Of a DNA stretch of 397 nt, positions 1 to 321 are shown piece by piece. The notes under the pieces are model-generated. The model had not been told where the DNA came from. It saw only the letters and a list, made by a program, of their open reading frames with translations, and ran no database searches. How positions within the stretch are numbered: the first letter of the stretch is position 1; each line of letters begins with the position of its first letter. Position numbers and translations under genes: made by a program. The DNA is from Escherichia coli (GTDB taxonomy: Bacteria; Pseudomonadota; Gammaproteobacteria; Enterobacterales; Enterobacteriaceae), in NCBI RefSeq assembly GCF_003334315.1, contig NZ_QOWR01000135.1; one strand, given 5' to 3'.

Positions 1-159
1 CAGCCTGCCGTGACGGTCATACCGGTAAAGATAGTGCGCGTCACGGGCGATACGGTTATCCGGCCACATGCTGAGGGTGCTGTCCGGGTGCAGCTCCGGG
101 TCGGGCAGGCGGTTACCTGCCGGGTCTGTGGCATACGGGATATCAATGCCCAGGTTACA
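1..159 (-). CDS. Rhs-family YD-repeat protein, internal core fragment (partial; 5'-truncated, 3' end continues beyond window position 1); probable orphan rhs cassette or rhs pseudogene
   Basis: Reverse-complement frame with codons 159-157 down to 3-1 is open for 53 codons: [53 protein letters not shown]. It ends in the Rhs/YD-repeat signature Y-R-Y-D-x-x-G-R-L and closely resembles, from memory, an E. coli Rhs core segment (...[40 protein letters not shown]). GC about 63% versus about 29% in the adjacent spacer. The same frame stays open upstream to 186 ([11 protein letters not shown]-rich, no Rhs similarity) and is closed by TAA at 189-187; the open stretch 186-1 has no ATG/GTG/TTG before the Rhs-like sequence (first in-frame ATG is at 69-67). 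Confidence 0.85.
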
Positions 160-321
160 TATAATAATAAGAGCAATTAACTTAATTTATTTGTTTATAA
201 TGCGCTTACTTAATACAAACCATTGAATATACCCTCCTGACAGAAAATAAAGCCATATTATTATCGCCATAATATACTTACTATCAATCCTTACGCCAAT
301 AATGTCTGATACAGTCCCTAT
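160..321. other. AT-rich spacer (about 29% GC) between the Rhs core fragment and IS1
   Basis: Hand count gives 46 G+C in 161-320, against 95 G+C in 1-150. The composition changes abruptly around 150-160, where the Rhs-like sequence ends. Confidence 0.7.
187..321 (-). pseudogene. 3' remnant of an ORF interrupted by IS1 (hypothetical small hydrophobic protein; possibly an Rhs-associated immunity gene)
   Basis: Minus-strand frame starting at 321 is open for 44 codons (IGTVSDIIGVRIDSKYIMAIIIWLYFLSGGYIQWFVLSKRIINK) and stops at TAA 189-187. The other two minus-strand frames hit stops within their first 12 codons (TAG 320-318 and TAA 293-291; TGA 286-284). The open frame abuts the IS1 end at 322, and within IS1 the same frame has a stop at 339-337, so it is not read out of the element. 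Only internal ATG is at 270-268, with no convincing Shine-Dalgarno. Confidence 0.3.

Follow-up and report, generated by a model that had tools for sequence, protein, structure and literature searches.

The 397-nt stretch of Escherichia coli DNA analysed here (hereafter, the window) runs from the RhsC element into the first bases of an IS1 element, and the nine bases that precede this IS1 end are AGTCCCTAT. The locus raises the question of whether these nine bases represent one copy of the target-site duplication produced by a simple IS1 transposition, or whether the junction was formed or later altered by a rearrangement, so that adjacent DNA was lost.

Identity of the IS1 End

Positions 322–397 of the window (+ strand) were identical at 76 of 76 bases, by sequence match, to annotated IS1A/IS1B-family elements of E. 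coli. Because the match falls at the insA-proximal end of annotated IS1, the end present in the window is the left inverted repeat (IRL). In a reference locus (L005), IS1 starts at 901 and its transposase coding sequence at 956; in the window, the IRL begins at 322 and extends to about 344, reading GGTGATGATGCCAACTTACTGAT... (also written GGTGATGATGCCAACTTACTGATTTAGTG...), and the GTG start of insA is at 377. The terminal inverted repeat matches GGTGATGCTGCCAACTTACTGAT, with one variant base, and is followed by the insA start. The earlier note had named the element as IS1, its end as the IRL, and the boundary as 321/322, and all three assignments are borne out by the complete identity and the position of the match. 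The window covers 76 nt of the 768-bp element, and the remainder lies beyond the window edge.

The variant base is an A at IS1 position 8 (window 329), which replaces the usual C (GGTGATGATGCC). It is a real variant; the 76-mer identical to the IS1 end of the window was found in 364 E. coli records and is carried by both IS1A- and IS1B-annotated bodies. Among 11 natural IS1 copies with this A that were sampled, four (L005, L018, L029, and L033) had perfect 9-bp duplications, and seven had none. The perfect duplications at four loci indicate that the A variant is transposition-competent.

The Target Site in ybfB

The nine bases AGTCCCTAT occupy positions 313–321 (+ strand) and directly adjoin the IRL at 322; the coordinates proposed previously for both features were correct. 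Since nine bases adjoin the end of any insertion sequence, a 9-mer in this position has no statistical content on its own, and only one copy of AGTCCCTAT occurs in the window, even with one mismatch allowed. In many E. coli strains, among them K-12 derivatives, the uninterrupted RhsC element matched window positions 1–321 with 100% identity, and this flank is collinear with uninterrupted ybfO-ybfB up to base 321. The empty site reads ...GATAC AGTCCCTAT AAATATTAG in L003, and the uninterrupted site was also read as ...GATAC AGTCCCTAT AAATATTAGAGC... The 9-mer occurs once at the empty site, within ybfB, and AGTCCCTAT is therefore native, single-copy target DNA. It is a candidate for the left-hand copy in a 9-bp target-site duplication. 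The reverse complement of AGTCCCTAT, ATA GGG ACT, encodes I65-G66-T67 of YbfB.

ybfB is a small open reading frame (ORF) of 327 bp that is located directly downstream of rhsC in the RhsC element. IS1 splits this gene after the Thr67 codon: the window retains the 3' fragment at 187–321 (− strand; codons 65–108, with the stop at 187–189), that is, the last 44 codons, severed from the 5' part by IS1. Downstream of ybfB, positions 1–156 (− strand) hold the start of an orphan Rhs core fragment, a ybfO-type pseudogene, of which positions 1–141 are repeated in other Rhs cores. A role as rhsI immunity genes has generally been proposed for small ORFs directly downstream of rhs genes (PMC3150448), and YbfB is, we infer, a putative RhsC immunity protein; NCBIfam has no family for YbfB. 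The GC content across positions 151–330 ranged from 0.23 to 0.35, versus 0.58 to 0.72 in the Rhs core, and this AT-rich target fits the reported preference of IS1 for AT-rich targets (PMC5009759).

Probable Simple Insertion with a 9-bp Duplication

The junction is an ordinary textbook junction of IS1 with its target, and AGTCCCTAT is probably one of the two copies in the usual 9-bp duplication. Under the proposed mechanism, IS1 entered the AT-rich gene ybfB within the RhsC element, its left end coming to lie at window position 322. The IS1 transposase InsAB' would have made cuts staggered by 9 bp in the target, and repair of the gaps would have copied those nine bases, so that a second AGTCCCTAT would be expected directly after the right inverted repeat (IRR). 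The right junction would then read ...GGAGTCATTACC/AGTCCCTAT/AAATATTAGAGC, and the predicted flank after the IRR end GGAGTCA(T/C)TACC would be AGTCCCTATAAATATTAG. We assign a probability of about 0.7 to a simple insertion with duplication, in which nothing was lost and the second copy would lie on the right side. The earlier note gave the duplications of IS1 as 9 bp and sometimes 8 bp, in agreement with published work (PMC5009759, PMC12428005). Because T321 is the native base, a 9-bp duplication of AGTCCCTAT is the parsimonious register.

The evidence counted in favour of simple insertion includes the identity of the IS1 end to annotated elements, the match of the flank to uninterrupted loci, the AT-rich target, and the perfect duplications of A-variant copies at four loci, all described above. 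In mutation-accumulation lines, 758 new insertions of insertion sequences were recorded, compared with 98 deletions caused by recombination between such elements (PMC5009759). Also counted were the IS1 insertions in or beside ybfB that could be read on both sides, all five of which carried target duplications, four with perfect 9-bp copies and one at 8 of 9 bases. The perfect duplications were CAGTCCCTA (L001), TACAAACCA (L002), GAGCACTTC (L017), and CTCTGAATA (L018); at the fifth site (L016), the two copies were GTGAAAGTT and GTGAAAGTC, that is, GTGAAAGT(T/C). The L001 insertion shares the orientation of the window insertion and is offset from it by 1 bp to the left; 17 complete genomes carry both of its junctions.

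At the L016 site (1368–1376 and 2145–2153 of that locus; NZ_AP027886.1, and also strain PM7), GTGAAAGTT lies beside the IRL and GTGAAAGTC follows the IRR, the wild-type base being C. This arrangement reflects either a duplication of 8 bp, with one T added at the IRL boundary, or a C>T substitution at precisely the junction position.

In and next to the 327-bp ybfB gene, at least 10 independent IS1 sites in both orientations were counted among complete genomes and protein records (L002, L016, L017, L018, and P0013; H183–H189), and the ybfB region is an AT-rich hot region for IS1. We considered whether IS1 insertions in ybfB favour one orientation, as a possible sign that read-out into the orphan toxin is selected, and rejected this, because the opposite orientation occurs at about five sites; with IS1 near ybfB in both orientations, there is no sign of orientation-specific selection. 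It is conceivable, though in our judgement quite improbable, that the recurrent IS1 knockout of ybfB reflects selected loss and not AT-richness alone, or that the T beside the IRL in both the window and L016 is the signature of an IS1 subtype with one extra base or with 8-bp duplications.

For the strain itself, the practical effect is that YbfB is cut short after residue 67, which adds one more IS1 allele in an AT-rich accessory gene. Whether or not the duplication is intact tells only whether the strain lost DNA on the rhsC side.

Searches for the Junctions

No exact match to the whole window was found in 5,426 complete E. coli genomes, in which the best single-piece match (99.2%) was the insertion offset by 1 bp. 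The left junction was also absent from those 5,426 genomes, and exact scans for it returned no matches in GTDB representative genomes and none in JGI metagenome contigs. Exact scans for the predicted right junction, TACC+AGTCCCTAT+AAATATT, likewise returned no matches in either of the latter two collections, and a BLAST search of complete E. coli genomes with a synthetic right junction recovered only the offset insertion and composite matches. Because the left junction is missing from the same DNA collections, the missing right junction is uninformative either way.

Protein records were searched as well. Exact look-up of 12 predicted read-through proteins joining YbfB residues 1–67 to IS1, in full and contig-truncated forms, retrieved none from the protein collection, in which the equivalent products of two other insertions, serving as positive controls, were found. 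Tracing a 67-aa partial YbfB (P0006) yielded nothing beyond contigs whose sequence stops at the junction and a scaffold gap that fits the offset insertion. The 37-aa ORF spanning the junction and a 56-aa ORF of the window had no record in the protein collection.

The edges of the window bear on where the right junction would be located. A 59-aa antisense edge ORF starting from base 1 of the window has entries in 747 public-assembly blocks, and 736 of these have contigs under 2 kb, which indicates that many draft assemblies break at this base; the longest contigs with this ORF all have an intact ybfB. Base 1 lies 141 nt into the repeated Rhs core, and base 397 lies 76 nt into IS1. The window is thus probably a whole repeat-bounded contig, in which case the right junction would be on another contig of the same assembly, and the sequence stops in IS1 because repeats break assemblies.

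Junctions without a Matching Duplication

The main alternative is that the window junction lacks a matching duplication. Such a junction could have arisen by intramolecular IS1 transposition, with an adjacent deletion or inversion from a nearby IS1, or by a simple insertion that was later rearranged through IS1-IS1 recombination or through a deletion extending from the IRR; in these cases, the IRR would be followed by something other than the 5' ybfB sequence. A deletion or rearrangement mediated by IS1 is a realistic, if unlikely, origin for the window junction. The neighbouring L001-type insertion provides the closest illustration. Strain ETEC4091 (L038) shares its IS1 copy with L001 (768/768 bases) and has the same right junction, and its IRL adjoins ybfC, with 1,775 bp deleted. 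At least seven genomes among the matches listed carry the L001-type right junction and are absent from the left-junction set. By our estimate, the right junction of the neighbouring IS1 occurs in about 26 genomes, compared with 17 for the left junction, so that the left copy of the duplication has been lost in roughly 9 of about 26 genomes. To this may be added the seven of 11 sampled A-variant copies that lack a duplication and the IS1 of L003, which has a CRISPR array on one side and a truncated ybfC on the other and also lacks one. Rearranged IS1 ends are therefore common, and it is for this reason that simple insertion is held to about 0.7. Against a rearranged origin, a duplication was present at all IS1 insertions inside ybfB for which both sides were read, and de novo events of insertion sequences are mostly simple insertions (PMC5009759). 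In addition, the window junction is absent from the complete genomes searched and is hence probably recent, which would have left little time for secondary events.

Several IS1 arrangements were recorded in individual strains. In ETEC4091 (NZ_CP122617.1; IS1 at 1783–2550 of L038), the right junction is CAGTCCCTA, and the deletion removed the 3' part of ybfB, the orphan Rhs fragment, and the 5' part of ybfC. The duplication-free IS1 of L003 (383–1150; NZ_CP025842.1) lies between the CRISPR array and a ybfC that is truncated at its C-terminal end, which suggests that an IS1-mediated deletion or rearrangement joined the RhsC element to the CRISPR locus. Strain CFS3313 (NZ_CP026939.2; L037, 1700–1795) carries an IS3-family element inside the IRL of a ybfB-resident L001-type IS1, about 12 bp from its tip. 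A derivative of ATCC 8739 adapted to AgNO3 (NZ_CP022959.1; L004, 124–1668) carries a tandem pair of IS1 copies 9 bp apart (CTATGCAAC), the second of which has no matching duplication.

It is highly improbable that a simple insertion took place in another register, namely, with an 8-bp duplication, GTCCCTAT, which predicts GTCCCTATAAAT after the IRR end (TACC/GTCCCTAT), or with CAGTCCCTA duplicated as in L001 and T321 as an extra base at the IRL, which predicts CAGTCCCTATAAAT (TACC/CAGTCCCTA/T): although 8-bp as well as 9-bp duplications of IS1 are on report and an unexplained T is found beside the IRL in L016, T321 is the native base at the window site, so no extra event is needed, and clean 9-bp duplications, free of any additional T, are seen at other A-variant IS1 copies.

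Comparison with Known IS1 Insertions

Simple insertion with a 9-bp duplication, the reading that we prefer, can be set against three known cases. L001, found in E. coli STN0717-20 and 16 other complete genomes, is located in the same gene and has IS1 in the same orientation, and its 768-bp element is flanked by the 9-bp duplication read on both sides. L001 departs from the window in a junction offset by one base and in its IS1 position 8, which is the usual C and not A; the flanks also differ at window base 78, which is C in L001 and T in the window. On the basis of these three differences, we regard the window insertion as having arisen independently at a hot spot. ETEC4091, a case of adjacent deletion promoted by IS1, involves the same locus and the same element family, and demonstrates that non-duplicated sequence can adjoin an IS1 end within the RhsC element; in contrast to that strain, the DNA beside the IRL in the window is collinear with intact ybfB, with nothing missing on the visible side. 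Finally, the window resembles classical IS1 transposition, for which a 9-bp target duplication was described (Grindley 1978, as cited in PMC12428005), in its IRL sequence, its AT-rich target, and the native 9-mer adjoining the end. It differs from the classical case in that one junction is visible, so that the duplication is here a candidate.
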